A DNA stretch of 52,191 bases from Clostridium sp. (GTDB lineage Bacteria > Bacillota > Clostridia > Clostridiales > Clostridiaceae): NCBI GenBank assembly GCA_024409095.1, contig JAKSUK010000001.1, positions 1 through 52,191 of the forward strand, in the 5' to 3' direction. The notes under the pieces were generated by a model, which was given only the letters and a program-made list of their open reading frames with translations, ran no database searches and was not told the DNA's origin. Made by a program: the position numbers and the translations under genes. How positions within the stretch are numbered: the first letter of the stretch is position 1; each line of letters starts with the position of its first letter. Positions 1 to 52,191 of the stretch are shown in pieces.

Positions 1-1000
1 AGCTAGTAGTATTGTAGATTATGAACTAATCTGGAAAATAGTAGGATTCTTCCCATTTATATTTAATATAGAAGTAAATCCTATAATAAAAGATTTTATA
101 GCTGCTAAATATAGTGATAAATCCTTAGCACCTTTTGAGGAAGGTATAAGAAATTTAATAAATACAGCAAGCACTGAACAGTTAAAAACAGTGATAAGAA
201 CAACTATCTCTAATAATATTGATAGAATGATTAATAGAAAAAGAGATTATATTGATAGCTGTAGACGTACAATAAAAGAATACACACAATCAATAGAAAA
301 TCAATATAGAGATCTTGCAAAATGTTCTCTAGAATATGAATCTTTATTACTTCAAAAAGCAAATATGAACGAAAATACTGAGAATCAGACAAATAGCTTC
401 GTAGATTATTTATTAAGACTGAAACATGTAAAGGTACATGAAGTAAGAGCTAATTATAATAAAATCTACTTAAAATTTGAAGTACCCTTAACTTCATATG
501 ATCCAGAAGCTTGCGAACGTATACTAAGAAGTTTAAATCGTCAAGCTGAAGATGAAAATTACAAAAGAGTTATAAGAGCTTTACAAAAGATACTATTAGA
601 AGAAGAATATACTATGACAATCTCAGCCATAGTCGTTATAAACTTTGAAGATAGGCAAATCTTTGTAAATCAAAACAATAGAGATGGTTATACAACTTTA
701 TATAACCCACATTTATATCATTTTAACTGTTGGGGTGATAATAGTTCTAGAATCTATGACGCTTTAAGTAAAGGTGAATTAGAAACTATGGTAAATTTTA
801 TATCTATGGCAGTTCAAAACATCAATTTCACAGATATTACTGTGATTAATAGATGGATAAGAACATTAGAAAGTGAAATAAATGAAATCCCAGCTGCAAC
901 TAACTTTATAGATATGAAATCTATAAAAGATACTGATGGTATTGAGTATACTCTAAGAGAAATTATTGAAATAATGGAGAAAGAAGGAGAAGATCTATGA
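1..1000 (+). CDS. 3' part of a prokaryotic E2-like (ubiquitin-conjugating-like) protein with a coiled-coil middle region; begins at 51713 across the circular junction (~492 aa total)
   Basis: Frame is open from position 2 to the stop at 1000. C-terminal NPHLYHFNCWG resembles the HPH..C(L/W)G signature of prokaryotic E2 folds (Cys codon 728-730). Lies between the Ubl and JAB genes. Confidence 0.7.
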   Translation, partial: ASSIVDYELIWKIVGFFPFIFNIEVNPIIKDFIAAKYSDKSLAPFEEGIRNLINTASTEQLKTVIRTTISNNIDRMINRKRDYIDSCRRTIKEYTQSIENQYRDLAKCSLEYESLLLQKANMNENTENQTNSFVDYLLRLKHVKVHEVRANYNKIYLKFEVPLTSYDPEACERILRSLNRQAEDENYKRVIRALQKILLEEEYTMTISAIVVINFEDRQIFVNQNNRDGYTTLYNPHLYHFNCWGDNSSRIYDALSKGELETMVNFISMAVQNINFTDITVINRWIRTLESEINEIPAATNFIDMKSIKDTDGIEYTLREIIEIMEKEGEDL

Positions 1001-1806
1001 GAAATATACAAATCACTGATGAAGTAAAACAAAAAGCTATAGAAGAATTTATAGCTAAATTAAATAATGAAAGAACAAACAATAATAGCATAAGCGTCAC
1101 AATGCGTTTAGACGACTTAAAGTTTAAAGAAAGGGTACAAGTATACTTCACTCCTAAAGCATGGCTTAAAATGTGGTCTTTAGTCCATACAGAACCTAAA
1201 GAAATAGGATGGCACGGTACAGTACAAAAAATAGACAAATATAATTATATTATTAAAGACATATTAATGTATCCTCAGTATACAACAGGAGTTACAGTAC
1301 AAACTGATGATGTAGAATATGGAAATTGGTTAATTAAAGAACTAGATGATGATACATTAAATTCTTTAAGATTCCATGGACATAGCCACGTTAATATGGC
1401 TACAACACCTTCAGGAGTAGATGATGCTTGGTATCAACAAATCTTAGATTCATTAAATAAAAATGATTTCTATATATTTATGATAGCAAATAAAAGAGAA
1501 GAGTTCTTTATAGAAATCTATGATCTAGAAAATAATGCTATATATGAGAAAAAAGATATAGATATAGTAGCATTATTAGATGATGATACATCACTTCAAG
1601 ACTGGGTTGCAACTGAGAAAAATAAAAATATAAAACAAAAACAAGCAGCTAAAAAAGCACCAACTAAATTAGAAGATTTAGAAGATGCCTGGTATATGGA
1701 TGATTATGCTATAGGCAATCAAATAGCTAAATCATATAATAAAAAATCAAAAAATAAAACTGAAAGATGGTCAGACTACATTAACAATTTCTATGGAGGT
1801 TATTAA
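997..1806 (+). CDS. JAB/MPN+ metalloprotease (deubiquitinase-like)
   Basis: N-terminal Glu (EIGWHG) plus HSHVNMATTPSGVD, i.e. the HxH-x7-S-x2-D JAMM motif. ATGA overlap with the upstream stop. Confidence 0.88.
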   Translation: MRNIQITDEVKQKAIEEFIAKLNNERTNNNSISVTMRLDDLKFKERVQVYFTPKAWLKMWSLVHTEPKEIGWHGTVQKIDKYNYIIKDILMYPQYTTGVTVQTDDVEYGNWLIKELDDDTLNSLRFHGHSHVNMATTPSGVDDAWYQQILDSLNKNDFYIFMIANKREEFFIEIYDLENNAIYEKKDIDIVALLDDDTSLQDWVATEKNKNIKQKQAAKKAPTKLEDLEDAWYMDDYAIGNQIAKSYNKKSKNKTERWSDYINNFYGGY

Positions 1807-1808
1807 TT

Positions 1809-2474
1809 ATGATAAGTATCGTAAAACAAAAAGAATATTTTAATCCTATGACAGATATAACAGCACCAATACATGTTATAGGAGTAGGAGCTATAGGGTC
1901 TACAATAGCTACAATGTTAGCTAGAATGGGGGTACAAAAGATAAACATATATGATTTTGATAATGTTGAAGCAAAAAATGTATGTAATCAAGAATACTTT
2001 GATGACCAAATTGGAGCACCTAAAGTAGTTGCTATAGGAGAAACATTAAAAAGAATTAATCCTGACATTGAATTAAAAATATACCCAGATGGTTACTCAG
2101 AACTGAATAGATTAGCAGGTTATGTATTTCTATGTGTAGATAATATAGATCTAAGAAGAGAAATTACAGAAAAATGTAAACAAATATTAGCTGTAAAAGC
2201 TGTGTTTGACTTCAGAATGAGATTAACTGATGCTCAACACTATGCAGCTAAACAAAAAGATTTAGATTATTTACTAAAAACAATGAATTTTACACATGAA
2301 GAAGCTAAGACTGAGACACCTGTATCAGCTTGTGGTACAGAATTAAATGTTATTACAACAGTAAGAACAATCTGTTCATTAGGTTTAAGTAATTTCATAA
2401 ATTTAGTAAAAGAAGATAAATTAAAGAAAATGATCATTGTAGATTTAAAAGAATTTACAATAGACGCATTTTAA
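1809..2474 (+). CDS. ThiF/E1-like adenylyltransferase (Ubl-activating enzyme)
   Basis: GVGAIGS Rossmann loop, DFDNVEAKNVCNQ, CVDN..R, and a candidate catalytic Cys in VSACG. Confidence 0.9.
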   Translation: MISIVKQKEYFNPMTDITAPIHVIGVGAIGSTIATMLARMGVQKINIYDFDNVEAKNVCNQEYFDDQIGAPKVVAIGETLKRINPDIELKIYPDGYSELNRLAGYVFLCVDNIDLRREITEKCKQILAVKAVFDFRMRLTDAQHYAAKQKDLDYLLKTMNFTHEEAKTETPVSACGTELNVITTVRTICSLGLSNFINLVKEDKLKKMIIVDLKEFTIDAF

Positions 2475-2745: not shown

Positions 2746-3840
2746 ATGTTTGTAACATTCTATAAAAGAGAAGAAAAAGTAATAAATAATTATTCAATTA
2801 TTGATTATTTAAATAATGTAGATTTTAATAAAATTGAAACTATAAAAAATACAAAAATTACAGTTGAAACAACAAAAAATCCAAAAAGTTTCGATATAGA
2901 AAATCTCCACAACATTGTAACAAAATTAAAAACTATAGCTGATAAATATATAAATAAAAACATAGATGATTATTACTATAGTTTCTTAATTCCTAAAAAG
3001 ACTGGAGGCTTCAGAAGAATAGAAGCACCTGTAGATGAATTAAAAACAGATTTAAAAGAAATGTTAAGAATAATACAAGATGAAATGAGAGTATTAGTAC
3101 ACTCTTCAGCATATGCTTATGAGAAAAATAAAACATTTATAGATGCTTTAAAAGTACATCAAAGAAATAGTTCAAACTGGTTTCTAAAATTAGATCTTAA
3201 AGACTTTTTTGGAAGCTGTACTGAAGAATTAGTAATACAAAAAATGATGGAAATTTATCCATTTAATAATTTAACTTATGAAGAAATACAAAGTTTTATA
3301 TGGATATGCTTTAAAGATAATCATTTACCACAAGGAACACCTATCAGCCCATTCATAACTAACTTGATAATGGTTCCATTTGATTATAAAATGACAGCAC
3401 ATGCAAATAAAAATAAATTGAGGTATACTAGATATGCTGATGATATTATAATATCTAGTTATTTACAAATAGAAAAATCAAAAACAGAAAAATATGTAGA
3501 AAGACTTCTAGAATTATATTATTCAGGTCTAAAAATCAAACATGAAAAAACAAGATATGGATCTAAAAATGGAAGAAACTGGAACCTAGGACTGATGTAT
3601 AATAAAGATAGAGACATCACAGTAGGTTACAGACGTAAAAAAATATATAAAGCAATGCTAAATAACTTATTTAAAAGCATTGCTGATGGAGTTATTCCCG
3701 AAAAAGATGAATTATATCACTTTCAGGGAGTAACAGCTTATTATAAATCAATTGAACCGATATATTTCAATAAAATAATTGAACAATATCAAGAAAAATT
3801 TAATATACGTTTATCAGACATTTATAAAAAATTTCTTTAA
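2746..3840 (+). CDS. Retron-type reverse transcriptase (364 aa)
   Basis: IPKKTGGFRRIEAP, AYAY..K...DALKVH (region X-like), LKLDLKDFF, LPQGTPISP, YTRYADD, and NLGL at the VTG position. RBS AAGGAG at 2731 favours ATG 2746 over 2647. Confidence 0.9.
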   Translation: MFVTFYKREEKVINNYSIIDYLNNVDFNKIETIKNTKITVETTKNPKSFDIENLHNIVTKLKTIADKYINKNIDDYYYSFLIPKKTGGFRRIEAPVDELKTDLKEMLRIIQDEMRVLVHSSAYAYEKNKTFIDALKVHQRNSSNWFLKLDLKDFFGSCTEELVIQKMMEIYPFNNLTYEEIQSFIWICFKDNHLPQGTPISPFITNLIMVPFDYKMTAHANKNKLRYTRYADDIIISSYLQIEKSKTEKYVERLLELYYSGLKIKHEKTRYGSKNGRNWNLGLMYNKDRDITVGYRRKKIYKAMLNNLFKSIADGVIPEKDELYHFQGVTAYYKSIEPIYFNKIIEQYQEKFNIRLSDIYKKFL

Positions 3841-3977
3841 TGATAGAAAAATTAAAATTACAGGTATCGATAAATACTGTCGTAATTCTCTTGATTAAAT
3901 TAAGAGTACAACAAAAACTACAATCATCTTAGAACTGCGAGAAGCAAGCTGGTCTTCTCTCATTAAGTATCATTAAA
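3836..3977 (+). ncRNA. Retron-like msr/msd ncRNA, unit 2 (downstream of RT)
   Basis: Perfect 10-bp IR TTTAATGATA (3836-3845)/TATCATTAAA (3968-3977), followed by G3846. Hairpins at 3856-3887 and 3888-3906 with the same ATTAAATTAA and ACAACAA motifs as unit 1. Confidence 0.62.
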
Positions 3978-4096
3978 CAAAAGAAAGAGACTATAAAATA
4001 GTCTCTTCCTCAATACTAACATTCACCATTGATCAAGTTTAACATCAATCATCAGAGTCATACAGATCAAATATAGAATATCAAATAAGGAGGGAT

Positions 4097-15712: not shown

Positions 15713-18700
15713 TTAATATCGTTTCATTCTAGGTCTTGACCTTAAATACAACTGATATTTTACTCTCTGAGCAGCATTTTTTTGAATATAAGATGCAACT
15801 TTACTTCTTGCACTACGATTATATATGTTACCCAAAGTAGCATGTGTAGGTCTGTAAGGATCATAAGACCTTCTGTGGATTTGAGAAGTAACATGACCGT
15901 AGTTAGGATGCATTTTATTATAGATACCTAATCTATATTCAGCATTCATACGAGTTGTTGTTGGATAAATTCTAGGTGAGTATCCTGTATAGTATGCTCT
16001 CATCTTACCACGTCCTGCAGTTCTATAAGTAACACCTTGATTTACATTAGGAGTAGCTGCATAAAACTTAGTAGCATAAGTTTTTCTTGCATAAGATTTT
16101 TTAGGATAAACTTTTTTAGGATAAGTTTTTCTAACATAAGTTTTCTTAGGTCTTCTGATATAAGCTTTTTTAGGATAAGATTTATATGTTTTACTATAAC
16201 CTTTTCCTGAAGACTTCTTCTTTTTATAAGTCTTATTATCATAAGTTCTTTTATTATCAAATTCACCCCATCTAGATATTGCTCCAAACACACCTGGGAA
16301 AATTGCATTTAATATATTATCAGTCTTAGTATATGATTTAGAACCTAAGCGTTTTTCATAAGTATTCTTACCTACACGTTCATCGTGCATGAAACCAGTA
16401 AGTGTATTTACGAAAGGCACATAGTTTAAAACATCTGTAGATATATCACCATCTTTAACAGCATTAGAAGCATTTTGTAATGCATATAAATTATTTAATT
16501 TATATTCCAAACTAGAACGTTCATCATCTGTTAATTCAGAGTTTTCTAATATATTTTTATAACGTTGAGCTATAACTGTATTAACAGCAAGTTTTGGAAT
16601 AGGTCCTAATTTTTCTACAATGCTTTCTACAGGAGCTACAAAAGTAACTAAAGAATCAAATATAGATGAGTTAATTTTTAATGTCATATTGTTTCTTACA
16701 GTCATTTCTTGAGGACCGTATTTAGTATATGCTGTTTGTTTAACTTTTTTATCTTCATAACCAAAAACTCTTAAAGGTATATTACCACTAATAATATTAT
16801 AAATTATAGATGGATTTTTAACTAATTCTTCATAACTAAAATCTTCGTCAGCAAACATAGGATCCCATATAAGATTATTATATACTCTTAAATAATTCTT
16901 TAAGAATGTAGGGTTTTCAGATATTAAATGAATTCCATACATTGTGTTGTTTGAAAAGAATGTCCAGAAAGGTATTAGATTTGATAATACAAAGTCTGAG
17001 TAAGTACCTACACTATAATCAAAATGTGTACCAGCTATATGATTTATAATATCATCATATCCTAAACCTTTACCTTGAAGGTTAAAGAATTGTGTAAGTC
17101 TGGCTGTACGTTCTATATGTGTATTAGGTGATAAAGCCATACTAAATATATTCTTTTCAAATGATTTTGGATTTATACCTGAATCATTTAAGAACTGATA
17201 CAAGAAATCATAAGATGCTTTATCCATTTCACCTGTATAAGTCTTAAAGAACAATTCTGCAGCCTCTTCATTGTATCTACCGAAATCATCTAATTGTTTT
17301 ATACTCTTAGATATTTCATCGAACTCTCTAAGTTTTTTAACAGCTTGAATATAATTTTCAGTTGTCTTTGTGAAAGAATCTCCTTCACCATAATTTTTTA
17401 TTGTTGAATCGAATAGATTTCTAAGCATAGCACCTGGTCGCATTAACCAAGAGTTTTTAAGCATTCTAACATATTGACTATATACTGCTAGGGTTCTACC
17501 TAGAGGACCGTCACCATAATGGAAGTTATTAATTTCTTCAGCAGCTTTAGCATACATTGTATAAGGCATTATAGTCATATTTTTAGCTTTAGCTTTTTTT
17601 AATGTTCCAGCTGAAGGGTTGATTAATCTTTTTAGTTCATATCCTCCTCTAGCTTTTTCATTTGCAAATAAACCAACTACACAGTACTCAGGATGTACTT
17701 TTAACCAGTGTGATAAATCATCAAGAGGCACTTTACTAAGAACTTCATCTGTTAATTTTACACCACCATTAGCTATAAATTGTGCGTATTCTTTATAAGC
17801 ATAAACGTGATTACATAATTTACTTACAGTATTTTGAAGTACGTCTGAGTAGCTACTATTAATTCTTCCACCGAATTCAGAGATACCTTCAAAACTTCCT
17901 ACAACAGTTGTATCTAATAAAGGTCCATAAGATTCTTCTACTGAGAACCCTAAAGCTTTTTTAATTTTATCTAAAGCATTTGCATGCAGTTGTTGGTTAT
18001 CAGCTAAATCTGTAAAGTTAGTTATACCAGTTCTTCCAGACATTTCAGGGCACATTAATATTGCACTTTGTCGAGCATCATACAACATTCTAATATATTC
18101 ATCATCAACATTGGCTGAGATGGCTTTACGAAAATCCTCATATGATATTTCTTCAAATATAGGTATAGCAAGCTCAACACCATCTAAAACATATCTAGCT
18201 CCTGATTTATTTTTATTAAGTTTTAAACGTTTTACTAAATCTTCAGTAGCTTCTATCTTTATAACAGGATTATTACTTAAATCAAATTCTTCAGTAACTT
18301 TTAAACCTAAAGCTTCTAAACCTTTCTTTCTAGTTGTTATAAATGTTTCAAATAATTCAGCATTATTTGAGAACATCTCAACAGGTTTAACAATTCTTAA
18401 AGTATGATTTGATTGTATATTATTACAAACTATTGAAAGAATTTGATCATCAGTAGCTTTTAATACATTGTTAACTTCTTTGCTTATTATAGCTCTATTA
18501 GCTCTTCTATCTAATTCTGTTATATACTTAATTCTTGTTTTATTAGATGTTGCATTCAATTTGTAGTTTGCAATATTTTGTGCTTTAGCTGCAGTAGACA
18601 CATTTGGGTCAACTTTACCGTTAGGTAATTGAGGTCCTGAAGCATTAATAGAACTTAACATAGCACTAAGACTTTTAGCTTGATTATATTTAGCACGAGC

Positions 18701-21700
18701 TACTTGATAAGACATATTAGCATTAACAGTTCCTATTGAGTCTATACCTAATACTCTACTTGTTGTATTTACTTTCCATGTTGGTGTTCTGTTATCTAAC
18801 ATTTTAATTAAAGTCTCATATGTTGGGTCTCCTCTAACAACATCAAAGAAATCTTGTATTTCATTCATACCATACAAATCACTTGAAGAACTTACTTTAT
18901 AATTAAATCTATCCCACATAGTTTGTAATGTAGCATAATTTGCTTGTATATCATCTGATATTCGTACATACTCTGCAAGCTTATCTATTTCATGATTATT
19001 TTTTATCATTGTTAATAATTCTGAAATACTATCTTTCTGATCGTATACTTCAGCAGCATCTACTATATCATTATAATTGTTTTGTATTTTACGAGCAAAA
19101 TCGTATAATGCTGGTTTTATTTTTTTAGGAACATCCCAACCTTGTGTACCATCTACAGACATAGCGTATCCTAAATCTAAAAAAGCAAGTGCATCTGCAG
19201 AATGTTTTTTAAACGCATATACTTGTCGTTCTCTACCTACTGTTAATACTTGTGTGAAATTAACAAAGTCCCAATCATCTAAAAATTCAGCCATATCTGG
19301 AAAAGTTTCTTTTAAAGTATTTTTTATAGCTTTAAATGTTTTCTTAGCATATGGTGTAGCTTGTTCAAATACTTCTGCACTTATAGGAGCGTCTGAAAGT
19401 GGATTATTTGTATTTGAAATCTCTTCAAAAACACTTTTAAGAGTTTCTGATAATCTGTTTATAATATTTTTTGAAGTAGGTGATAATAAGGATTCATTAG
19501 TATTTGCAACAAATTGTTCTACAGAATTAATCATATCATCAATATTATTAAATTCTATTTGGTCTTCAAAATCTAAAATAGGATTATCTATGTCCATAAG
19601 ATCTTTAAACATGTGCATAAGTTCTGATGACATATTTTCTTGTAATTTTACTTCATGACCTATTAATTCTTCATAATTAATTAAGTCTTTTGCTAAAAGA
19701 TCTACATAGGCTTCTATTTGTTTTGATAATTCTTGTTTTAATTCAGGGCTGAATTTAAAGTATTTATCTTTACTCAAGTCAATAAATGAATCTTCATAAG
19801 TAAATCTATCTAGTATTTCCTGAGGATCTGTAAGAAGTTTTCTTTCAGAACCTGCTAATAATTTACCTTTTATAAGTTTATTTTTATAAGATTCTTCTAG
19901 ACCTCTTCCAGTATTCTTTCTTGTCATTTTTTCTCTAAGAACTTTAAAGTCAAAAGCATATCCATTATGAGCTCTAATAATAGAACCTTCTGGAATATTA
20001 GTTTCAACATAATCCATAAAATCAGAAAGCATATTATTTTCAGTATAAATTTTATTAGCATTATCTGTAACATATTTAGCTTTGTGATCTGTAGGCTTTA
20101 TACCCATGTGATGTAAAACATCATCTGCAGTTCTATAATTATCTGCATAAAACATTTCTTCAGTAACTTTAACTTGACCATACCAAGCAATTGTAGTTAC
20201 ACCGTCTTCATGTTTTAAAAGAGCTATTTCTTGTACTTTACCATCACCAAGTGAATCTGTTTTTTTATTTATACCTCTAGATGTTTCAATATCAAAAGTA
20301 TAGTATGTTCCTTTTTGTTCTATAATATCAGAACTAAACTCTGCTTCATCAATCATATCTTGAAGAATAGTATCATATAAAGCACCATGACGTCCTTGTT
20401 CACGTAAAGCTTCTTTAGCACTTTCGTCTAAGTCTGAAGTGTCTATAACTTCATTAAGTTTATTTACAACATCTTTTTCTTTTATATTGTGTTTTTTCTG
20501 AAGGGCATCAACACTAAATCTTGTTGAATCAGGATTAGCACCAATCATATAACCTTCCATACTGTTAAACACATTATTTACTGTAGTCTGATTAAAGTTT
20601 CTAAGGTCTGGGTTGTAATTTTTAAATGTTGATAAAAATGCCATCTTTAAAGTTGTTTTTTGTTTAGAATCTAAATATTCTGAATGTTCTATTGTCTCAT
20701 AAATATTTTTATAAAAAGCTTGTTTATATCTAATTGCTTTATCCATATAAGATAAATTAGCAATTAAATATAAATCATTTTCTGATAATTTACTATATCT
20801 TTCTACGTTTTCTATAAAGTCTTTATTAAGTACATTATCTAATAAACAAGCAAGTTCAGGGTCTGCTGCTTTTAATTGTGTTAACATATTAGAAACTTCA
20901 TCACCAATTCTTAAATCTACAAAACTATTTTCTAATTTTAAAATATATTCATCTGTTGATGCAGACATAAAAGCAAGATCTTTTTCAATAACTTTAGTTG
21001 TAAATAATTCTAAAGTATCCATTAATGTTTTTACAGATGCTTCATTTTTTGAAACAATTTTTTCAATTACTTCAGGTTTTTTTAAGAGATTTAAAAAATG
21101 ATCATATCTTGTATAAGTACCATAAAGTACTTTTTTAATTTTTTTCTTTGTTACAGGAAGTAAATTTGAATCATTTTCTTTTAAAAAGTTTTTATAGTAT
21201 TTAACTATTCTATCAAGAGTAGCTCTTGGGTCTCCTTCAAGATCTGAGTCATGCCACAAGAGATCTATATCTACATTCTTTTTTAAACGTCTATATGCTA
21301 CTGCAAATTTCTTTTTATCTTCTCTTATTATATCTCTTAATTCCAATTCTAAGAGTTGATTTTGTCTTTGTAAAAATTCTTTTTTTGTTTTTGGTACTTG
21401 TATTTTTCTACGTTTTAATTGTTCAAAAAAAGGAGTTATATCATTATAGTGTCTCATGTCTACAGTTGTATCTAACTTATTAACTTTTTCAAAAAAGTGT
21501 TGTACTTTTCTATAAACATTAAAAGTTTCTTGTTTAGACTTTTCAAAATTGTTTAAAAGTTCTGTGAAATAAGTATATTTGTTTCTTGCGTCCATACCTA
21601 TAATAGCTTTATCATTTTTTAAATAAGCTCCAATTTCCATAAACTTTTTATAAGTATCTTTTAAAGATTCTTTTAATATAAGTATATTATCAACATCATA

Positions 21701-24568
21701 GTCTGACATTGATTCGCCAAGTGATTCTACATAATATGCTCCTCCTTCATTTATTTCTGGAAGATAACGTTCAAACAATTCATCAATTTTTGAATTGAAT
21801 AAACTAGGAGAATCAATAGCATCTGGTAAATCAAAAGCTTTTTTAAGATCTTTTAAATCTTTTTTGAAATACTGAAGAAGTTGTATTCTATGTGCTTCAC
21901 TATAATCAATTATAGTTTTAACATTTTTAGCTAGTTTATTAGTTAGAAGTACATCTAAAAATTTACCTTCAAAACCATATCTAATTTCAAATTTATTTTT
22001 AGTTAAATATTCTTTAACAGATTTTTTTAAAGTATTAGATTTATCATTTAATCTTTTTAATTTATTATTAACACTTGTTAATTTATTATTAAATATTGCT
22101 TTAGATACTTTAAGTTCTTCTTTACGAACCGTTTCAGAAGTTAATTTAGGTTCTTTAGTTAGTTTTTTATCTTTACTTAAATTAACATAGCCCTTTTTTA
22201 TTTTATCTAAATTAGTTCTTAATTTCTTCTCATAATTTTTTTGTAATTTTTTAAAGAAATCTAAATATTCTGGATTTGCTTTTCTTACACTGAATCCATA
22301 CCCATTTAATATACTATCAAATATGTTATAAGCTTCTTCAGACATTGTTGTTTTAAGATGTTTTAAATACTTTGTAGCAATAGCTTTATCATTATTTTCT
22401 ACAGCATAGAAGTATGTAAAAAATTTTCCAAAAATTTCTTTACGAACTTTTAAAGATACACCAGCTTCTTCTAATGCCCAATCTATATAAGTATTTATTT
22501 CTTGTACAGACATTTGATGTTCAGAATACATCATTTTTAGATTTGTATAATTTATAGTGATTTCTGGCATTAAAAGATCCAGTAAGTCCTCATTTTTTAA
22601 TATGGTTGGGTCATTATTTTCTAAAGCTCTAATGATGTTTAATATAGAATCTTCATTAAATAATCTATTAACATTAAAGTTTGCTAATTCTGATAATGTT
22701 TTATTAGAATCCATTATAGATTTTTCTAAAGCATTATTAGCTAATATAGTGTCTATTTTCTTTGCATTTTCAAAAAGTTCTTCATAAGCTCTTATATATT
22801 CTGCTACATGAGGATCTACAACACCATCTAAAGCTTTATAAGCTTCTTCTAATTCTTTTAATTCTTTTATAAATGTTTCAAAATCTACTTTAGTATCTGT
22901 AAATGATTTTATAGATCTTAAATAAGATTCTAAAAATTCTTTTGCTGAAGAATTGATTGTACCTTCTTCTAAGTTTTCAAGGAATGCTTCTAAGTTTTCT
23001 TTTAAACTTTTTTGATTAGAAGCAAGATATATCCCAAGCCCATTGGCTTTCAATGAAGCACTATCAGAACCTTCAGTACCTGCTAGTTTAAAAATATCTA
23101 CAATTCTATTAGCAGTATAATTTACACCAGCATTTTTTGTTTTTAAATCTTTTGCAAGTATACTATTAATCTCATTTAAATCTAGTGCTTTAATTAAATT
23201 ATTTTTAAGAACATTAACAACTTTTGAATTTTTTAACCAAGACACAGAACCTCCTAGTACTGGAAGTTCTGCGTATATTGCAACTTTGTCTACAACATTA
23301 TTAAAAACTTGTCCCCATCTACCTAAAGACATTATAATATCATCTGCTTGTTTCTGAAGAATAACTTTACCAAAATCATCTATTGAATTCTTTAATGCTT
23401 CAGGCATAGCTCCTTTTAAATTTAAATCAGCTTTATCTATTTTATTTTTTACAATATTTGATAAATGATTTGCTATAATGTCAGATTTAATATTCTTTTC
23501 TCCTGTAAGTTTTATGTCTGCTAAAAGCTTTTTATATGCTACAGGATCTCCAAGAACCTCTTGTCCTGTTTTAGCGTACTTTTTAAATATCTTTACAATA
23601 GATTCTTCTGGTATATTGTATTGGGCTGCAAGTTTAAGAACATTAGGATCTTTAGTTATTTTAGCAACATCAGCTAAATTATTTATAGATTTTACAGTTG
23701 TTGTAACGCCTTTGCCTGCCTTACCCAATAGAGTAACAGGGTCTGAATAGATTTCACCTAACGTATTAGCTGCAAAATTAGTAACACCTTTAGTTATTTT
23801 TAAAGGTCCCTTAACTATTTCTAAAGGTCCAATTAAATCTTCTTCATCAATAGAGTTTAAACCATATAACACTGATAGAGGTGTTGCAGCTGGAGAATCT
23901 ATTGCATATAATGTAGCTAATTCTGATTTTATTAAAGGCCCATATCCTCGTTCATTAAAACTTTTTATTGTTTTTTCTACATCTATATTGTAATCATGAA
24001 TACCTTTGCTATCTCCTATAGTTGCTTTTCTAATAGCTGTAAGAATATCATCTTTTTCAACACCCATTAATGAGTATCTAGCTGCTTTTACAGGATTAGC
24101 AAGAATATCTGCTGTCTCTCCTAGTGCTAAAAAACTATTAAGAAGTACTTCAGAACCTGAGTATAAGAGAGATTTTTCTCCAGAGAAATATTCTTTGATA
24201 GGTTTTAATTGATGTTTATCTAAATGATCTGCCCAGTTTATGAAAGTATCATAAAATTTATTTTCTGTATTTGATAATTTTTTAATACGAGGATTCCAGT
24301 TGCCCCAAAAAGCATCTCTTAAAGAATTTACTTCATATGGGTCTGTAGCATTTATTAGAATAGACTCTAACCATGATGGTTTTTCTTGTTGTTCTTTTTG
24401 TTCTTCTCGTACAACAGCCCTGTATTTATCAGATAATTTTAAGGGTTTTGTTGCTGGTGTTGCTGGTGTTGCTCGTGTAGCATATGTTGCTGGTGTAGCT
24501 GGTGTAGCAGGTGTAGCAGGTGTTGCCCTCATTGGATTTTTTCTATAATATACATTAGGATTTGACAT
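15713..24568 (-). CDS. Giant (2951 aa) internal virion/ejection-type polyvalent protein with a DEDDh exonuclease domain
   Basis: Uninterrupted ORF at the end of the structural operon. FDIET, AHNGYAFD and HGALYD motifs; HFDYS...IPFWTF C-terminal region; basic tail. Confidence 0.75.
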   Translation of the reverse strand: MSNPNVYYRKNPMRATPATPATPATPATYATRATPATPATKPLKLSDKYRAVVREEQKEQQEKPSWLESILINATDPYEVNSLRDAFWGNWNPRIKKLSNTENKFYDTFINWADHLDKHQLKPIKEYFSGEKSLLYSGSEVLLNSFLALGETADILANPVKAARYSLMGVEKDDILTAIRKATIGDSKGIHDYNIDVEKTIKSFNERGYGPLIKSELATLYAIDSPAATPLSVLYGLNSIDEEDLIGPLEIVKGPLKITKGVTNFAANTLGEIYSDPVTLLGKAGKGVTTTVKSINNLADVAKITKDPNVLKLAAQYNIPEESIVKIFKKYAKTGQEVLGDPVAYKKLLADIKLTGEKNIKSDIIANHLSNIVKNKIDKADLNLKGAMPEALKNSIDDFGKVILQKQADDIIMSLGRWGQVFNNVVDKVAIYAELPVLGGSVSWLKNSKVVNVLKNNLIKALDLNEINSILAKDLKTKNAGVNYTANRIVDIFKLAGTEGSDSASLKANGLGIYLASNQKSLKENLEAFLENLEEGTINSSAKEFLESYLRSIKSFTDTKVDFETFIKELKELEEAYKALDGVVDPHVAEYIRAYEELFENAKKIDTILANNALEKSIMDSNKTLSELANFNVNRLFNEDSILNIIRALENNDPTILKNEDLLDLLMPEITINYTNLKMMYSEHQMSVQEINTYIDWALEEAGVSLKVRKEIFGKFFTYFYAVENNDKAIATKYLKHLKTTMSEEAYNIFDSILNGYGFSVRKANPEYLDFFKKLQKNYEKKLRTNLDKIKKGYVNLSKDKKLTKEPKLTSETVRKEELKVSKAIFNNKLTSVNNKLKRLNDKSNTLKKSVKEYLTKNKFEIRYGFEGKFLDVLLTNKLAKNVKTIIDYSEAHRIQLLQYFKKDLKDLKKAFDLPDAIDSPSLFNSKIDELFERYLPEINEGGAYYVESLGESMSDYDVDNILILKESLKDTYKKFMEIGAYLKNDKAIIGMDARNKYTYFTELLNNFEKSKQETFNVYRKVQHFFEKVNKLDTTVDMRHYNDITPFFEQLKRRKIQVPKTKKEFLQRQNQLLELELRDIIREDKKKFAVAYRRLKKNVDIDLLWHDSDLEGDPRATLDRIVKYYKNFLKENDSNLLPVTKKKIKKVLYGTYTRYDHFLNLLKKPEVIEKIVSKNEASVKTLMDTLELFTTKVIEKDLAFMSASTDEYILKLENSFVDLRIGDEVSNMLTQLKAADPELACLLDNVLNKDFIENVERYSKLSENDLYLIANLSYMDKAIRYKQAFYKNIYETIEHSEYLDSKQKTTLKMAFLSTFKNYNPDLRNFNQTTVNNVFNSMEGYMIGANPDSTRFSVDALQKKHNIKEKDVVNKLNEVIDTSDLDESAKEALREQGRHGALYDTILQDMIDEAEFSSDIIEQKGTYYTFDIETSRGINKKTDSLGDGKVQEIALLKHEDGVTTIAWYGQVKVTEEMFYADNYRTADDVLHHMGIKPTDHKAKYVTDNANKIYTENNMLSDFMDYVETNIPEGSIIRAHNGYAFDFKVLREKMTRKNTGRGLEESYKNKLIKGKLLAGSERKLLTDPQEILDRFTYEDSFIDLSKDKYFKFSPELKQELSKQIEAYVDLLAKDLINYEELIGHEVKLQENMSSELMHMFKDLMDIDNPILDFEDQIEFNNIDDMINSVEQFVANTNESLLSPTSKNIINRLSETLKSVFEEISNTNNPLSDAPISAEVFEQATPYAKKTFKAIKNTLKETFPDMAEFLDDWDFVNFTQVLTVGRERQVYAFKKHSADALAFLDLGYAMSVDGTQGWDVPKKIKPALYDFARKIQNNYNDIVDAAEVYDQKDSISELLTMIKNNHEIDKLAEYVRISDDIQANYATLQTMWDRFNYKVSSSSDLYGMNEIQDFFDVVRGDPTYETLIKMLDNRTPTWKVNTTSRVLGIDSIGTVNANMSYQVARAKYNQAKSLSAMLSSINASGPQLPNGKVDPNVSTAAKAQNIANYKLNATSNKTRIKYITELDRRANRAIISKEVNNVLKATDDQILSIVCNNIQSNHTLRIVKPVEMFSNNAELFETFITTRKKGLEALGLKVTEEFDLSNNPVIKIEATEDLVKRLKLNKNKSGARYVLDGVELAIPIFEEISYEDFRKAISANVDDEYIRMLYDARQSAILMCPEMSGRTGITNFTDLADNQQLHANALDKIKKALGFSVEESYGPLLDTTVVGSFEGISEFGGRINSSYSDVLQNTVSKLCNHVYAYKEYAQFIANGGVKLTDEVLSKVPLDDLSHWLKVHPEYCVVGLFANEKARGGYELKRLINPSAGTLKKAKAKNMTIMPYTMYAKAAEEINNFHYGDGPLGRTLAVYSQYVRMLKNSWLMRPGAMLRNLFDSTIKNYGEGDSFTKTTENYIQAVKKLREFDEISKSIKQLDDFGRYNEEAAELFFKTYTGEMDKASYDFLYQFLNDSGINPKSFEKNIFSMALSPNTHIERTARLTQFFNLQGKGLGYDDIINHIAGTHFDYSVGTYSDFVLSNLIPFWTFFSNNTMYGIHLISENPTFLKNYLRVYNNLIWDPMFADEDFSYEELVKNPSIIYNIISGNIPLRVFGYEDKKVKQTAYTKYGPQEMTVRNNMTLKINSSIFDSLVTFVAPVESIVEKLGPIPKLAVNTVIAQRYKNILENSELTDDERSSLEYKLNNLYALQNASNAVKDGDISTDVLNYVPFVNTLTGFMHDERVGKNTYEKRLGSKSYTKTDNILNAIFPGVFGAISRWGEFDNKRTYDNKTYKKKKSSGKGYSKTYKSYPKKAYIRRPKKTYVRKTYPKKVYPKKSYARKTYATKFYAATPNVNQGVTYRTAGRGKMRAYYTGYSPRIYPTTTRMNAEYRLGIYNKMHPNYGHVTSQIHRRSYDPYRPTHATLGNIYNRSARSKVASYIQKNAAQRVKYQLYLRSRPRMKRY
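24448..24527 (-). repeat. 9-bp tandem repeat encoding (ATP)n at the N-terminus of the giant protein
   Basis: Plus-strand TGTTGCTGG/TGTAGCAGG units; translation RATPATPATPATPATYATRATPATPATK. Confidence 0.9.
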
Positions 24569-29137: not shown

Positions 29138-30409
29138 TTAGTTATTTAAAAAGCTTATACTCCAACCTTTATTATTAGCTATAGTTATATACTCCTCTGT
29201 AATAAAGTTTTGTAAATTAGAATGAAAATTAACATATAAAGATGAAGTTGTGTCTATTGGTATTGGTGTACTTCGTTTACTATTTACATCGTACAAATCA
29301 TCTATAATATTTAAAGCACACTCTAAAGTTAAACAACGACAATAAGATAGATTTAAATTATATTTATCAAAAAGAGTTGTGGAGTCTGTAATTGGGTATG
29401 ATTTACCTAAATTTTTAAATCCACTAATATAAGATAAACCTGGACAGTTGAAAGGTATATATGAAGAAGTAGTACCTGTTTGCATAGCTGTTGCATTGCC
29501 ACAATCTGTTAAATATAAACTTTTTAAACTACCACAATTATTACATATTCCATTGAAATTTTGTAGATTAGATGTATTTAATTTAACAGAGACTAAAGCT
29601 GAGCAGCCTTGAAACATATTATAAACTGTTTGTGGGCTTGCTAGTTCCATATCTACATATTCTAAACTTTGACAATACTGAAACATTTGATTTGCATTTG
29701 TTAATGAATTTGTTCTTGTTTTCATTTCAAAACGTTTTAGACTATAACAGCAAAAAAACATATACTGAGTGCTTGTTACGTTTTGAAAATCAAAGTCAGG
29801 AGCTTGTTTTAATGAAGTACAGTTATAAAACATATTTGAAAAATTAGTGGCTTTACTTGTATCAAAATTAGGTACTGCTTTAAGACTTGTACATCCATAA
29901 AACATTCTTGAAAAATCTGTTATGTTTTTTGTATTGAATTTAGGAACTGTAATAAGAGATGAACTACTTTCAAATACAGTTGAAAGACTCTTTACAGAAG
30001 ATGCTATATTGAATTTAGGAATAGTTATAGCACTATAATTATACCTAAAATGAGTTGCAGGTGTAGATGTTGTTATATTTGAGTAACCTATAAATCTACA
30101 TGTTCTATTACCATAACAAGAAACGGGTTTATTATATGTTTGTGCTAATTCATAATCTAAATCTGTTAAAACATATACATCATTATATTCTTCATCCCAA
30201 TCAACTACAGAATTATACCATGCTATTGTTTCTTCATCATAACCTAAACTTCTTAAACCTTCTACATCTAAAGAACCTGTATATTTCTTTTCTGAAGGGA
30301 TATTAACTATCTCTTCAGCAAAATCTTCAGGATGTATTAAATCTGTTTTACCTGTTTTAGTTCTGATAGCATCAGCTATATTTTTAAATATTGTAGCTAA
30401 AGTTGACAT
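29138..30409 (-). CDS. DUF285/BspA-like leucine-rich repeat protein, probable receptor-binding protein
   Basis: Repeats of the type FDTSKATNFSNMFYNCTSLKQAP; N-terminal IADAIRTKTG; C-terminal IANNKGWSI. Confidence 0.8.
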   Translation of the reverse strand: MSTLATIFKNIADAIRTKTGKTDLIHPEDFAEEIVNIPSEKKYTGSLDVEGLRSLGYDEETIAWYNSVVDWDEEYNDVYVLTDLDYELAQTYNKPVSCYGNRTCRFIGYSNITTSTPATHFRYNYSAITIPKFNIASSVKSLSTVFESSSSLITVPKFNTKNITDFSRMFYGCTSLKAVPNFDTSKATNFSNMFYNCTSLKQAPDFDFQNVTSTQYMFFCCYSLKRFEMKTRTNSLTNANQMFQYCQSLEYVDMELASPQTVYNMFQGCSALVSVKLNTSNLQNFNGICNNCGSLKSLYLTDCGNATAMQTGTTSSYIPFNCPGLSYISGFKNLGKSYPITDSTTLFDKYNLNLSYCRCLTLECALNIIDDLYDVNSKRSTPIPIDTTSSLYVNFHSNLQNFITEEYITIANNKGWSISFLNN

Positions 30410-46868: not shown

Positions 46869-46869
46869 T

Positions 46870-47690
46870 TAAATTACATAGGTAGGGTAAATATACCCTA
46901 CCGTGTTTAAATAAGCTCAGAATCCATTCTGAGTTTATTTAAGCACATCTAGAAAGGAGGTGCTGAATACTGAGGAAATATATTAACTCTCGGTGGTGGG
47001 GAAAGATTCCACTGCGTAAGCATAGTGTGCTACGCTAGCATATTACTCTTCGCAAGTATCGCTACCTTCGGTGGAGTATTTTACTTCGTAAGGTATCTCG
47101 AAGAGACGTTAACATAAGTGATTACCATAAAAAATATTATGGTACCTTTACATAAAAAATTAAGAGGGTTTCAGGGGTCTAGCCCTTGATATTTCTGGCT
47201 TTTCTCTGTCTCTCTCTTAAAAAAGTTACAGTATTACGTTAACAAGTTGCAGGTAAAAAAAAACTTTTTTTTTATTTTTATAAAAATATATATAAAATAT
47301 ATACTAATATATATATAATCTGCCATTTTTTGTCATATAGTTTTAAAACTACCTGTCACTTTTTGTCATATTATATATATAGATATAAATATATATATAT
47401 ATATAATAATATAATTATATAATAGAAAAGTTAACATAATATTACCCCGATTTTTAGAAACCCAAAATTTCAAAAAATCGCATTTTTTGTCTAAAAAAAT
47501 TGACATTTTTTCAGACTTAGTTTGTAAGGGGGACTAAAAATACACGTCTCTTTTTCACCTCTCATTATAGCATGCAGGTACAAGGCTATATAAAAACCAT
47601 CTCTAAGACTCGAAGTCTTTCGAGTAAACTCTCAGACTTAGAGCCTAAGAGCTGGTTGCCTTGACCTGTATGCCTCCATTCAAGGAGAAA
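46870..47690. other. Long non-coding region with many hairpins, (TA)n tracts and TGTCA repeats; candidate origin or terminus region
   Basis: No long ORF. Hairpins at 46881-46902, 46906-46942 and 47570-47673; AT-rich core 47260-47440. Confidence 0.5.
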
Positions 47691-47733
47691 AATAGACCGA
47701 GCAAGTCGTTAAACTGCCAGAAAGGAGTCATAT

Positions 47734-48623: not shown

Positions 48624-49049
48624 ATGAAAATAAAAATTATTAAAGCTGATTTATTCAGCTTTAAAAACAAGTGCTATTTAGCACATTGCATCAGTAGTGA
48701 CTTCGCTCTAGGTGCTGGGATAGCTGTTCAGTTTAATAAACATTTTAATATGCGTAGCATATTGAAATATAAATACCCAACTTACAGTTGGGATAATGGA
48801 GACTGTATTTTAGAAAATACAGTCTTTAATTTAGTTACAAAAGAAAAATATTGGCATAAGCCAACATATAATACTTTAGAAAAATCTCTCATTAAAATGA
48901 GAGATATAGCTTTACAAAAGAATATTAAAAATATAGCCATGCCTTTGATAGGTTGTGGCTTAGATAGACTTGACTGGGATCAAGTTAAGAGTATTATTGA
49001 AAATGTATTCAATGATACAGATATACAGTTTATAATCTGTATAAAATAG
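48624..49049 (+). CDS. Macrodomain ADP-ribosylhydrolase (Poa1p/TARG1/DarG-like)
   Basis: LAHCISSDFALGAGIA, FNLVTK, IAMPLIGCGLDRLDW. Confidence 0.9.
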   Translation: MKIKIIKADLFSFKNKCYLAHCISSDFALGAGIAVQFNKHFNMRSILKYKYPTYSWDNGDCILENTVFNLVTKEKYWHKPTYNTLEKSLIKMRDIALQKNIKNIAMPLIGCGLDRLDWDQVKSIIENVFNDTDIQFIICIK

Positions 49050-49629: not shown

Positions 49630-50196
49630 ATGGCTTTTATAAGAATGTCAGACCAAATTGAACACGGTGACGTGTTCTGGTGTCAATTACCTGTTCAAGC
49701 AGGTAATACGACACAAGGAAAAAGACCAGTTATTATTGTATCAAACAATAATAACAATAAGTATAGTAGCAATGTTACTATCGTACCATTGACTACTAAC
49801 ACAGATAAAGTAGGCACTCAGCCTACACATATCGCTGTTAAAGCACTAGAAGATAGTGTCGCACTATGTGAAGAAGTTCGCACAATATCAAAGACCTATT
49901 TGGGCACAAAAATAGGTTGCTTTGATCAAGAAGATATGTCCCGAGTTATTTTGGGTATTATGTGTCAAATAGATGCATTTAAATATTCAAAGAGTAAGTC
50001 TGAAGATACATCTTCAGAAAAGGAGTACGAGGAAAAACCAGTAGTTCACAAAAGAATTTGTGATAAACAAACAATAAAACAATTCTTAGACGATAACGAT
50101 CGTCTAACTGTAGATGAGATGATGAAGAAATATAATATTAGTACACGTACAGCCGTGTACCAACGTGTTTCAAAATACAGAAAAAAGTTCAAATAA
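49630..50196 (+). CDS. MazF/PemK-family endoribonuclease fused to a C-terminal HTH
   Basis: GDVFWCQL, KRPVIIVSN, VTIVPLTT, ALCEEVRTISK; C-terminal LTVDEMMKKYNISTRTAVYQRV. Confidence 0.85.
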   Translation: MAFIRMSDQIEHGDVFWCQLPVQAGNTTQGKRPVIIVSNNNNNKYSSNVTIVPLTTNTDKVGTQPTHIAVKALEDSVALCEEVRTISKTYLGTKIGCFDQEDMSRVILGIMCQIDAFKYSKSKSEDTSSEKEYEEKPVVHKRICDKQTIKQFLDDNDRLTVDEMMKKYNISTRTAVYQRVSKYRKKFK

Positions 50197-50688: not shown

Positions 50689-50764
50689 CGAGGTGTAGTT
50701 CAATTAGTAGAACGCTAGTTTTGGGAACTAGAGGCAGTTGGGGCAGAACCAGCCACTTCGACCA
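50689..50764 (+). tRNA. tRNA-Pro(TGG) with atypical T-loop
   Basis: Acceptor CGAGGTG/CACTTCG, anticodon arm CTAGT-TTTGGGA-ACTAG, encoded CCA; T-loop GGCAGAA. Confidence 0.85.
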
Positions 50765-50878: not shown

Positions 50879-50952
50879 TTCCAAATGGTGAAATGGTATC
50901 ACATCAGATTTTGATTCTGAGATTCTTAGTTCGAGTCTAGGTTTGGAAACCA
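50879..50952 (+). tRNA. tRNA-Gln(TTG)
   Basis: Acceptor TTCCAAA/TTTGGAA, anticodon arm TCAGA-TTTTGAT-TCTGA, T-loop TTCGAGT, encoded CCA. Confidence 0.92.
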
Positions 50953-51058: not shown

Positions 51059-51442
51059 ATGAAAATCAAAAATGAATCTGAAATACAAGTAGTAGTATTT
51101 CAATCAGAATTAACAGTAAAGGAGATCATGGATTTAAAAAGATACAATCCTGAATTGTTAGTAAAAACAGATGAAGAAGGAAATCAAGTGTTTAGAATTG
51201 ATTTTAATGATGTTGAAGGAGATATTTGCAAATACGCAGTAATATTCGATAAAGAAACTACTGAAGGTAATGCATTATACACTGTATCAATGAAAGCAAC
51301 AAATGAAGAAGTTGCTAGAAACTTTATCAGCGTTAAAAGAAATGTTGAAGAAATTGAAGAAAAAGCAATGAATTACATCAGAACATTAGAAGAAGACATT
51401 ATGACTTTAGCTAATGAAATTGGAGGTGCTAATAATGATTAA
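51059..51442 (+). CDS. Hypothetical protein translationally coupled to the Ubl gene
   Basis: RBS AGGAGG; stop overlaps the Ubl start. Confidence 0.75.
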   Translation: MKIKNESEIQVVVFQSELTVKEIMDLKRYNPELLVKTDEEGNQVFRIDFNDVEGDICKYAVIFDKETTEGNALYTVSMKATNEEVARNFISVKRNVEEIEEKAMNYIRTLEEDIMTLANEIGGANND

Positions 51443-51662
51443 TGTAACAATTGGTACTAACACTTCAAGAAAAAGAGTTATAGTTGAAGAAAACAAAACT
51501 TTAAGAGAAATTTTAGCAGAAAATGAAGTAAATACAGCAGTAGGTACTGTACATGTTGATGGTATCCCAGTATCTGTATCAGAAATGGGACAAACATTAG
51601 CAGAATTGAACATTAGTGATGGTGCTTACATCATCGCAGTAGCTAAGGCTGATAATGCATAA
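51435..51662 (+). CDS. Ubiquitin-like (beta-grasp) protein, 75 aa, ending KADNA
   Basis: RBS GGAGGTG before ATG 51435. Pattern INVTI..KRVIV..KTLREIL..VHVDG..QTLAELNISDGAYIIAV matches ubiquitin topology (compare TLxDYNI); E1, E2 and JAB genes are adjacent. Confidence 0.8.
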   Translation: MINVTIGTNTSRKRVIVEENKTLREILAENEVNTAVGTVHVDGIPVSVSEMGQTLAELNISDGAYIIAVAKADNA

Positions 51663-51665
51663 ATA

Positions 51666-51689
51666 AAGAGCCGAAAGGCTCTTTTATTT
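51666..51689 (+). terminator. Terminator/attenuator between Ubl and E2-like genes
   Basis: AAGAGCC-GAAA-GGCTCTT followed by TTTATT. Confidence 0.7.
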
Positions 51690-51712: not shown

Positions 51713-52191
51713 ATGGAGTTATATAATGATGATTTTAATTCAGAACTAAAAACTAATTTACATAGCATGTTATTCAATATCAGTAACTGGATGACACCAA
51801 AATTTCTAACTACATACAACAGGGACGGATTTCCAGTCCCTTATTGGTTTAATTTATTTAATTTTACGCCAATAAATCATATTACTTTATCAAATGATAA
51901 AGTATTCTTAAAACAAGAACATTTAGATATATTTATAAAAGAAGATAATGAAATACCGTATCCAGATTTTCTAGATACACTTGATTTTTCAATCAGTTCT
52001 AGTGCACCTACAGGAAAATTACAATTTAATTTCATTAATACAAGTACAGGGAAAATTATCTATAAAATACTAGATAAATTTGCAGCTGAAGAACAAACAA
52101 CAGGTTCTTTTAATTTTAAATTAGAAAAATTAGAAGAATTATCAGCTGCTTTTAAAATAAGCAATAATCATAGTATTTCTATGTATAAATT
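51713..52191 (+). CDS. 5' part of the E2-like protein (MELYNDDFNSELK...), continuing at position 1
   Basis: RBS AAGGAGG, ATG 51713, open to the window end; the last TT plus A1 gives TTA, in frame with 2..1000. Confidence 0.75.
   Translation, partial: MELYNDDFNSELKTNLHSMLFNISNWMTPKFLTTYNRDGFPVPYWFNLFNFTPINHITLSNDKVFLKQEHLDIFIKEDNEIPYPDFLDTLDFSISSSAPTGKLQFNFINTSTGKIIYKILDKFAAEEQTTGSFNFKLEKLEELSAAFKISNNHSISMYK

Follow-up and report, generated by a model that had tools for sequence, protein, structure and literature searches.

The contig JAKSUK010000001.1 (52,191 nt, one of 191 contigs of a 1.49-Mb genome bin), which as a whole constitutes the window analyzed here, carries a unit that comprises, judging from its sequence, genes for a hypothetical protein (hyp), a ubiquitin-like protein (Ubl), a protein resembling ubiquitin-conjugating enzymes (E2-like), a JAB/JAMM peptidase and an E1/ThiF adenylase, followed by a retron-type non-coding RNA (ncRNA), a retron reverse transcriptase (RT) and, likely, a second ncRNA. 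The RT and the conjugation genes probably form one functional unit. The reading we prefer, with a probability of roughly 40%, is that complexes of the RT and its multicopy single-stranded DNA (msDNA) steer or gate a predicted Ubl ligase that tags host proteins, to the benefit of the phage. As predicted from its parts, the system would function as a retron coupled to a cascade of the Bil/Cap2 type, and it lacks defining features of Bil, Bub, PRTRC, CBASS and the described retron types. The preliminary description of this DNA had recognized the order hyp-Ubl-E2-JAB-E1 as phage-owned. Order and coordinates are reproduced when the open reading frames (ORFs) are re-read, and the phage ownership holds, with genes for a terminase, a major head protein and PolA alongside. 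The unit had been taken to end at E1, one gene too early: an ncRNA (2487-2728), the RT (2746-3840) and a likely second, short ncRNA (3836-3977), all on the forward strand, belong to it.

The functional association is carried by gene linkage. Using JAB, 80 loci were retrieved from IMG/VR (the best of at least 160 relatives in 30 of 64 IMG/VR parts) and 58 from GTDB; a reverse search considered the 80 closest of 570 RT loci, which overlap the JAB-retrieved set in part. The dereplicated set consists of 103 loci. Where at least 5 kb of sequence follows JAB, both RT and E1 occur in 72 of 74 viral loci and in 41 of 44 genome loci, and an RT follows the cassette in 113 of the 118 loci with enough flank. 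In the reverse direction, 76 of the 80 RT loci extend at least 4 kb upstream, and all 76 contain E1 and JAB; the remaining four are short of flank. The order of the six genes is intact in 97 of 97 complete non-redundant loci, even with genes inserted, and is constant on phage contigs of about 50 kb to over 140 kb. No further gene is common to more than 38 of 104 loci, and the conjugation set is therefore the only constant candidate effector. It had been proposed that the genes form a stand-alone pathway akin to Bil or Bub, in which case the retron would merely be an independent neighbor. The four genes alone do look like a complete cascade, and five of the 118 loci have no RT in the fetched flank, but we consider this very unlikely, because both search directions show RT and ncRNA to be near-obligate partners and the gene order is fixed across contigs of such different length. 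A special co-evolution of the E2-like protein with the RT was also considered and rejected, as the correlation of tree distances (0.86) is 0.71 at equal length, under that of E1 and RT.

The gene at 2746-3840 (364 aa) encodes, by its sequence, a retron-clade RT. It matches the NCBIfam model retron_St85_RT (E = 1e-57; 195.7 bits, under the cut-off of 235) as well as PADLOC retron RTs, and the best PDB matches of the family profile are the retron RTs Ec83 and Ec78 (E = 1e-44). The YADD-type motif is intact in the window and present in 102 of 103 RTs. Region X of the window RT reads A-L-K-V-H and region Y reads N-L-G. Throughout the family VTG is replaced by NLG (VTG in 0/103) and NAxxH by AVxxH (NAxxH in 4/103), with the His and the Gly kept; according to the available text of PMC7736814, the region X His and the region Y Gly are the most conserved RT residues. 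None of the described retron effector families (Mestre 2020) is encoded next to the RT, whose constant partners are Ubl, E2-like, JAB, E1 and hyp. Six of the 103 loci carry, 442-643 nt 3' of the RT, a putative RNase H-like gene, named after a motif.

The cassette is common in uncultured gut phages. All 58 GTDB matches are contigs of metagenome-assembled genomes, mostly Clostridia, and of the 50 GTDB loci that could be judged on 5 or more flanking genes, 40 have two or more of these genes in common with viral loci. Within INPHARED, no cultured phage has the cassette; the only close match is the uncultured MT835544. Locus L141 (8947-11507) holds a fragmented cassette with a non-phage-like flank.

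On the window the cassette lies across the contig ends and is encoded on the forward strand. The hyp gene (51059-51442, 127 aa) is followed by Ubl (51435-51662, 75 aa, ending in AKADNA) and by a terminator-like hairpin (51665-51684) that is also found in relatives. The E2-like gene consists of 159 N-terminal codons (51713-52191), coding for a domain whose fold is not recognized, and a remainder (1-1000) coding for a long helix and a UBC/RWD-like domain. JAB (997-1806, 269 aa) and E1 (1809-2474, 221 aa) complete the set. The genes are overlapping or abutting, as stated initially, except for Ubl and E2-like, which are separated by 50 nt including the hairpin. When the two contig ends are joined, the E2-like frame runs without a stop as a single ORF of 492 aa. 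A profile of 148 relatives, with the window protein left out, is matched by the end piece (159 aa) at positions 20-137 (E = 2e-8) and by the start piece (332 aa) at positions 146-461; against a profile of 28 sequences, the end piece reaches 16.4 bits, and none of 500 shuffles exceeds 9.9. Since both pieces match one profile end to end, homology supports a join of the contig ends within this gene. There is no terminal repeat left at the contig ends to prove circularity.

The E2-like protein contains the motif NPH-x5-C-x-G, with His397 and Cys403 (of 492) both invariant (61/61 and 70/70 aligned). A model of the last 332 residues (predicted local distance difference test, pLDDT, 90) consists of a 78-residue helix (203-280), a further helix, a four-strand sheet with a two-helix insertion, a loop with the His and Cys, and further helices. 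The UBC/RWD-like domain extends over about residues 283-453, so that in the model about 280 aa precede it, instead of the extra part of some 330 aa previously assumed. Among 48,161 chains, the top three VIA-align matches belong to the SEA complex, Knl1 and an LTN1-containing complex (Z = 7.3, 7.2 and 7.0). Together with FANCL they cover model residues 124-275 (Z 6.7-7.3, root-mean-square deviation 3.2-3.6, 84-97 aligned residues), and we take all of these matched chains to be RWD/UBC-fold domains. Based on the model, the protein is likely an E2 with a UBC/RWD-like fold. A UBC fold had been named as a test of this assignment, and the RWD-type matches together with the invariant His and Cys give it moderate support. 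However, a Z of about 7 falls in the tool's possibly-common range and no active E2 is among the matches listed, and the E2 call is therefore short of proof; a Foldseek search against the PDB gave nothing at E ≤ 0.001. No Pfam family is common to 61 members, a sequence search of the PDB returns coiled-coil matches only, Foldseek against viral structures finds one uncharacterized phage protein, and the N-terminal domain has no usable match in the Atlas. The relatives of the protein form 544 clusters at 50% identity. In locus L036 (5513-6987) the E2-like gene is split, and L038 (2824-3453) has a second, short E2-like copy.

The Ubl assignment makes use of relative L007, a Ubl-hyp fusion whose Ubl is 43% identical to that of the window (model pLDDT 96). 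With Foldseek, the L007 model matches chains that contain ubiquitin, SUMO or a UBL (best E = 1.1e-3). The best VIA-align match has a Z of 8.8; BilA (Z = 8.1, 23% identity) is the most identical among the matches listed. The beta-grasp fold, likewise named earlier as a test, is thus found in the model of a relative. Among 136 distinct Ubls, 126 have a C-terminus of the pattern K-x-x-x-A followed by 0-4 residues and 5 have Gly; the window Ubl ends in K-A-D-N-A, that is, in Ala without a C-terminal Gly. A few Ubls, such as those of L115 (8257-8490) and L134 (535-786), have a Gly-Gly end instead of Ala and are natural controls. Longer proteins with Ubl-like matches and without the KxxxA end are encoded 5' of the cassette in L088 (3564-4181) and L111 (4144-4689).

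The hyp protein, encoded by 74 of the 80 viral loci and 53 of the 58 genome loci, has a beta-rich body and a long C-terminal helix, and its fold class is not recognized. No Pfam family is common to the 41 members scanned, the Atlas search yields unnamed clusters only, and for the Ubl-hyp fusion L007 the structural match lists are occupied by the Ubl half. Fusions of Ubl and hyp occur in 12 of 98 scored non-redundant loci, in 12 of 12 cases at K-x-[DE]-N-A|A-hyp. This exact position of the joint, together with the short Ubl tails, implies processing of Ubl by JAB: by analogy to known systems, the peptidase would trim Ubl after the Ala or free it from hyp. A tandem duplication of hyp and Ubl, as seen in L016, L070, L123 and L124, is the likely route to the fusion. 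The hairpin 3' of Ubl is found in 40 of 95 loci, compared to 0.9% of shuffles, and after JAB in 0 of 103; from its position we infer that it would permit an excess of hyp and Ubl over the enzymes.

These features bear on the possibility that tagging controls the retron module itself, in the way Cap2/Cap3 act on the CBASS cyclase, with Ubl attached to hyp (for example to an N-terminal Ala), to the RT or to the E2-like protein, and removed by JAB. The fusion mimics an N-terminally tagged hyp, since its joint is A|A and the stand-alone hyp begins with Met-Ala in 35 of 56 recognizable starts; hyp and Ubl also co-duplicate in the four loci named and share the terminator-bounded unit. We nevertheless regard such self-regulation as quite unlikely. 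Both catalytic Cys are retained in the three fused loci that the conservation alignments include, and a free Ubl end is therefore still required; tandem duplication alone could have given the fusion (2 changes on the tree); and the hyp of the window itself starts with Met-Lys.

The remaining two enzymes conform to their initial assignments. JAB has an intact metal-binding motif (E69, H129, H131, S139, D142), of which H129, H131, S139 and D142 are invariant (53/53) and E69 is kept in at least 90%; the pattern E...HxH-x7-S-x2-D, described at first as HSH..S..D, occurs in 103 of 103 loci, and the family profile matches Rpn11 (E = 0.003). E1, matched by Pfam ThiF (E = 1e-24), has an invariant Cys175 (39/39 aligned; 94/103 loci by a strict pattern). 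It is a single domain of 221 aa without a CxxC zinc site, CxxC being present in 5 of 103 loci. Its best NCBIfam matches are ThiF/MoeB models, all under cut-off; PRTRC_ThiF reaches 29.6 bits compared to a cut-off of 144.75, and no other PRTRC model matches. Across the cassette the catalytic motifs are retained in 94-103 of the 103 loci. The ThiF family membership of E1, along with the predicted nucleic-acid product of the same operon, would also accommodate the absence of any protein tagging, with Ubl as a sulfur carrier or attached to nucleic acid (msDNA or its RNA). This is highly improbable in our estimation: Ubl ends in Ala and not in Gly-Gly, a UBC/RWD-like partner with an invariant Cys is encoded, and there is neither a sulfur gene in the window nor another conserved neighbor. 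Indeed, as originally noted for thiamine and molybdopterin biosynthesis, no thiamine, molybdopterin or sulfur gene is among the 49 window ORFs scanned with Pfam. The features of ThiS/MoaD sulfur relays, a Gly-Gly carrier as well as donor and acceptor genes, are not found in the window cassette, and a sulfur-carrier role is unlikely.

The second group of features concerns the ncRNA. In retrons, reverse transcription is primed at a branching G flanked by the a1/a2 arms (PMC12916289, PMC7736814, as far as the available text describes). Unit 1 (2487-2728), located between E1 and RT, is predicted to consist of a2 (2487-2495), G2496, two msr hairpins, the msd, G2719 and a1 (2720-2728), with the a1/a2 stem closed by G.G. 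Its fold has a z of -3.7, and it is the top window match (E = 0.05) of a covariance model built from 48 msr with the window left out. Unit 2 (3836-3977, 142 nt) consists of a2 (3836-3845), G3846, two hairpins, G3967 and a1 (3968-3977), and has a 10-bp stem closed by G.G and a fold z of -2.6. Its second hairpin repeats the unit 1 core ATTAAATTAA as well as the tail ACAACAA. Unit 2 is detected neither by the covariance model nor by an msr profile hidden Markov model (HMM), which detects neither unit of the window. From the sequence, the window likely carries two ncRNA units. A 13-bp hairpin (3982-4010) lies right behind unit 2; L001 has a similar one, after a similar short unit.

Across the relatives, a long-range stem of at least 7 bp with G.G closure is found 5' of the RT in 60 of 104 regions, compared to 5 of 96 control regions. 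The excess of G.G is the test here, since the stems were chosen as complementary. These units span 233-411 nt, with several pair types at every stem position. Covariation is seen in the second msr hairpin, with 61 double-change cells compared to 27 in shuffles; its pairing is 72.5%, and sliding brings this to no more than 56.7%. The profile HMM yields 118 matches, every one on the RT strand, and none when the DNA is reversed; 36 of 104 sequences have at least two. The covariance model, run on 100 of the 103 loci, yields 156 msr matches in 74 of 100 loci, again all on the RT strand: one in 24 loci, two in 25, three in 22, four in 2 and eight in L014. Hence 50 of 100 loci carry 2-8 units. Of the matches, 66 lie just 5' of the RT and 65 within 1.5 kb 3' of it. 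The training set does not include 114 of the matches; of these, 57 form an individual stem of at least 7 bp with G.G closure, compared to 0.7% of shuffled sequences, and the other 57 fail this strict test. Within a locus (12 pairs, 4 loci), msr are 61-77% alike and msd 49-56%, vs 46-52% when shuffled. Most msd fold only weakly as DNA, with a median z of -0.8 for 40 units. The region 8435-13697 of L014 has eight msr units around a single RT, and an RNase H-like gene lies amid these units.

The following steps would combine these parts into a mechanism. JAB would trim Ubl behind the Ala of K-x-D-N-A, or sever it from a fused hyp, as suggested by the tails of 0-4 residues and the 12 fusions and by analogy to BilC and BubCD. 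E1 would then adenylate the terminal Ala, load Ubl on Cys175 and hand it over to Cys403 of the E2-like protein, a thioester relay that we propose because of the folds and the invariant residues. Given the retron anatomy in the alignments, the RT may prime at the unpaired G behind a2 of every unit and produce one msDNA per unit. The RT-msDNA complex would take the place of a ligase (E3), as a sensing or substrate-recruiting part, and the variable msd might be distinct baits for host DNA-binding or defense proteins that are then tagged and disabled; the tag could be removed by JAB. In favor of RT-msDNA complexes steering or gating the ligase are the reciprocal linkage of RT and cassette, the constant gene order, the retained catalytic motifs, RT distances that follow those of E1 and the E2-like protein as closely as these follow one another, the array data and the phage-like flanks of the GTDB loci. 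Two further ideas from the initial description, a selection of substrates by the coiled-coil part of the E2-like protein in place of an E3 and a countering of host Ubl conjugation, are speculative. A more specific version, which we think unlikely, is a DNA-programmed Ubl ligase, in which each msDNA puts an Ala-ended tag on the protein that binds it, DNA acting as the E3 and the msd array as an exchangeable target list.

Several observations weigh against the preferred reading, in addition to the preliminary status of the E2 call and the five loci in which the RT is missing from the fetched flank. Activity, targets, expression and binding are all predicted, from sequences and models alone. The distance correlations within the cassette (RT-E1 0.76, RT-E2-like 0.71, E1-E2-like 0.70) have no non-cassette control and could result from whole-phage inheritance. 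Nine loci with the RT less than 100 nt from E1 (L012, L013, L050, L056, L078, L112, L120, L127, L136) have no msr profile-HMM match at E ≤ 0.05; their RNA may be elsewhere or diverged. The sole class of bait tested failed, as the words that are rich in msd are not those that phages avoid: enrichment and avoidance correlate with rho = +0.36, 0.03 and 0.02 for 4-, 5- and 6-mers. Finally, the tested retrons and the Bil and CBASS systems are anti-phage, which favors a role in defense.

In this alternative the cassette would be a phage-borne tripartite retron defense: the RT-msDNA complex keeps the Ubl cascade off, and a competing phage that disturbs the msDNA frees the tagging of virion or replication proteins, leading to superinfection exclusion, with the array broadening the range of triggers. 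The anti-phage activity of retron Eco2 (PMC12916289) and of Bil (PMC10557695) fits this explanation, as do, equally well, the linkage and array data. The bin to which the contig belongs is moreover a 1.49-Mb genome whose GC content is similar (window 30.2%, bin 29.0%), which is compatible with persistent carriage. We rate superinfection defense as rather unlikely, as the cassette is positionally fixed in its phage gene context, the five large-contig loci inspected have no defense-island setting (one of them, L141, is broken), and no integrase is among the 49 window ORFs scanned.

The msd themselves have a distinct word composition. In 60 loci, GCAGC (80 vs 30, about 2.9x), CTGAAG (29 vs 8) and CTGCAG (16 vs 3.5) are in excess, GATGAC and CATC are also over-represented, and 6-bp palindromes reach 1.30x, compared to 0.62-0.66x in coding DNA. 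A function as restriction-site decoy was considered and rejected: asymmetric sites are equally enriched in the whole window (1.34x), and msd enrichment does not track genome avoidance, neither pooled nor per locus.

We compared the cassette with known systems as they are described in the available text of the papers cited. Retrons are tripartite systems of RT, ncRNA and effector (PMC7736814; Eco2, PMC12916289). The window family shares with them the RT clade, the a1/a2 arms, the unpaired G after a2, the msr hairpins, the region X His and the region Y Gly. It differs in the absence of the canonical VTG and NAxxH, in several ncRNA units per RT, in msd that mostly form no strong hairpin (median z as above), and in a partner that is a five-protein conjugation set in phage context. 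The main text of PMC7736814 makes no mention of ThiF, ubiquitin or JAB. The Bil system (PMC10557695) also consists of a Ubl, an E2, a JAB and an E1 with a catalytic Cys, and BilC, its JAB, trims a short Ubl tail. In contrast to Bil, whose Ubl ends in Gly and whose E1 has an inactive adenylation domain, a CYS domain and a zinc site, the window family has an Ala-ended Ubl, a 221-aa E1 and a 492-aa E2-like protein with the His before the Cys, in addition to hyp, RT and ncRNA, and is phage-owned. In Bub (PMC11601596), the JAB (BubCD) frees the Ubl from the in-frame fusion BubAB, similar to the release predicted here for Ubl-hyp. Bub cuts after Gly, has Ubl-E2 and JAB-E1 fusions and no E1 Cys, and forms oxyesters, whereas JAB and E1 are separate genes here and Cys175 is found in 39 of 39 sequences.

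CBASS Cap2/Cap3 (PMC10097602) resemble the cassette in the activation of Gly or Ala, in reversal by a JAB and in the coupling of conjugation to an enzyme that synthesizes nucleic acid. The C-terminal Gly or Ala of the CBASS cyclases is conserved, and a Gly-to-Ala change still gives the Cap2 thioester; activation of Ala by an E1 hence has a precedent, since Cap2 accepts a C-terminal Ala. In CBASS the cyclase itself is the tag and E1 and E2 are fused, whereas the window encodes a separate Ubl, E1 and E2-like protein, an RT and no cyclase: a CD-NTase cyclase is found neither among the window ORFs scanned with Pfam nor among the conserved cassette neighbors. PRTRC/operon type 6d (PMC1779556) is located on mobile DNA and likewise has a separate Ubl, JAB, E1 and E2, together with one more conserved protein; the Ubl there has a C-terminal Gly and the E2 carries its His after the Cys, in contrast to Ala and a preceding His here.

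Among known systems, UG27 (bioRxiv 10.64898/2026.09.22.753630) comes closest as a precedent for arrays of ncRNA in gut phages; it combines a gut-phage RT with a variable array of diverse ncRNAs, each giving a short cDNA. By its description it is set apart, with a class 2 UG RT, YSDD, two accessory proteins and hairpin units of about 150 nt, compared to the retron-clade RT with YADD and the units of 233-411 nt of the window family; the words 'ubiquitin' and 'JAB' are absent from the main text of that paper (10.64898/2026.09.22.753630). Engineered retron arrays exist, according to a reference list. In the open-licence PMC and bioRxiv literature, with subscription papers outside the scope, we found neither a system combining reverse transcription with Ubl conjugation nor a natural multi-unit retron array. 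On a narrow reading the cassette is a new retron type. We regard it as more than that because its partner is a whole cascade, because there are up to eight templates per RT, and because of its phage context. It is predicted to be a divergent retron with a natural tolerance for long, unstructured and multiple templates, and it raises the questions of what the sequence diversity of the msDNA is for, how a bacterial cascade without E3 chooses its target and whether an Ala-ended Ubl works. Were the DNA-programmed ligase true, the msd array would serve as a swappable target list.

Regarding the surroundings, the proteins encoded by the window ORFs include a terminase, the major head protein, PolA, an SNF2 helicase, an MCM-type primase-helicase, an amidase and a dUTPase; with terminase, head protein and other phage genes on it, the window is therefore that of a tailed phage. 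No spacer-like matches exist between the window and the remainder of its genome bin. Immediately before the cassette are two tRNA genes (50689-50761 and 50879-50952, forward strand); Rfam calls both and finds nothing else in the window, and ARAGORN calls only tRNA-Gln TTG. Just 5' of the cassette, at 49630-50196 (forward strand), lies a MazF/PemK-like gene (Pfam E = 1e-22), with a similar gene at this place in L001. A stand-alone macrodomain with a weak DarG-like match (48624-49049, forward strand) is a possible counter to ADP-ribosylating defenses. The 865-nt non-coding region at 46869-47733 has several hairpins and long AT runs and is possibly a replication origin or genome-end region. On the reverse strand, an ORF of 2951 aa (15713-24568) without a Pfam match at E 0.01 possibly encodes a virion-delivered or tail protein, and a DUF285 repeat protein among the tail genes (29138-30409) is a possible clue to host range. 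Some words are strongly avoided in the window (both strands, observed vs expected), namely GCGC (0 vs 17), CCGG (0 vs 6), GGCC (2 vs 23) and GATATC (2 vs 25), which suggests restriction pressure by the host.

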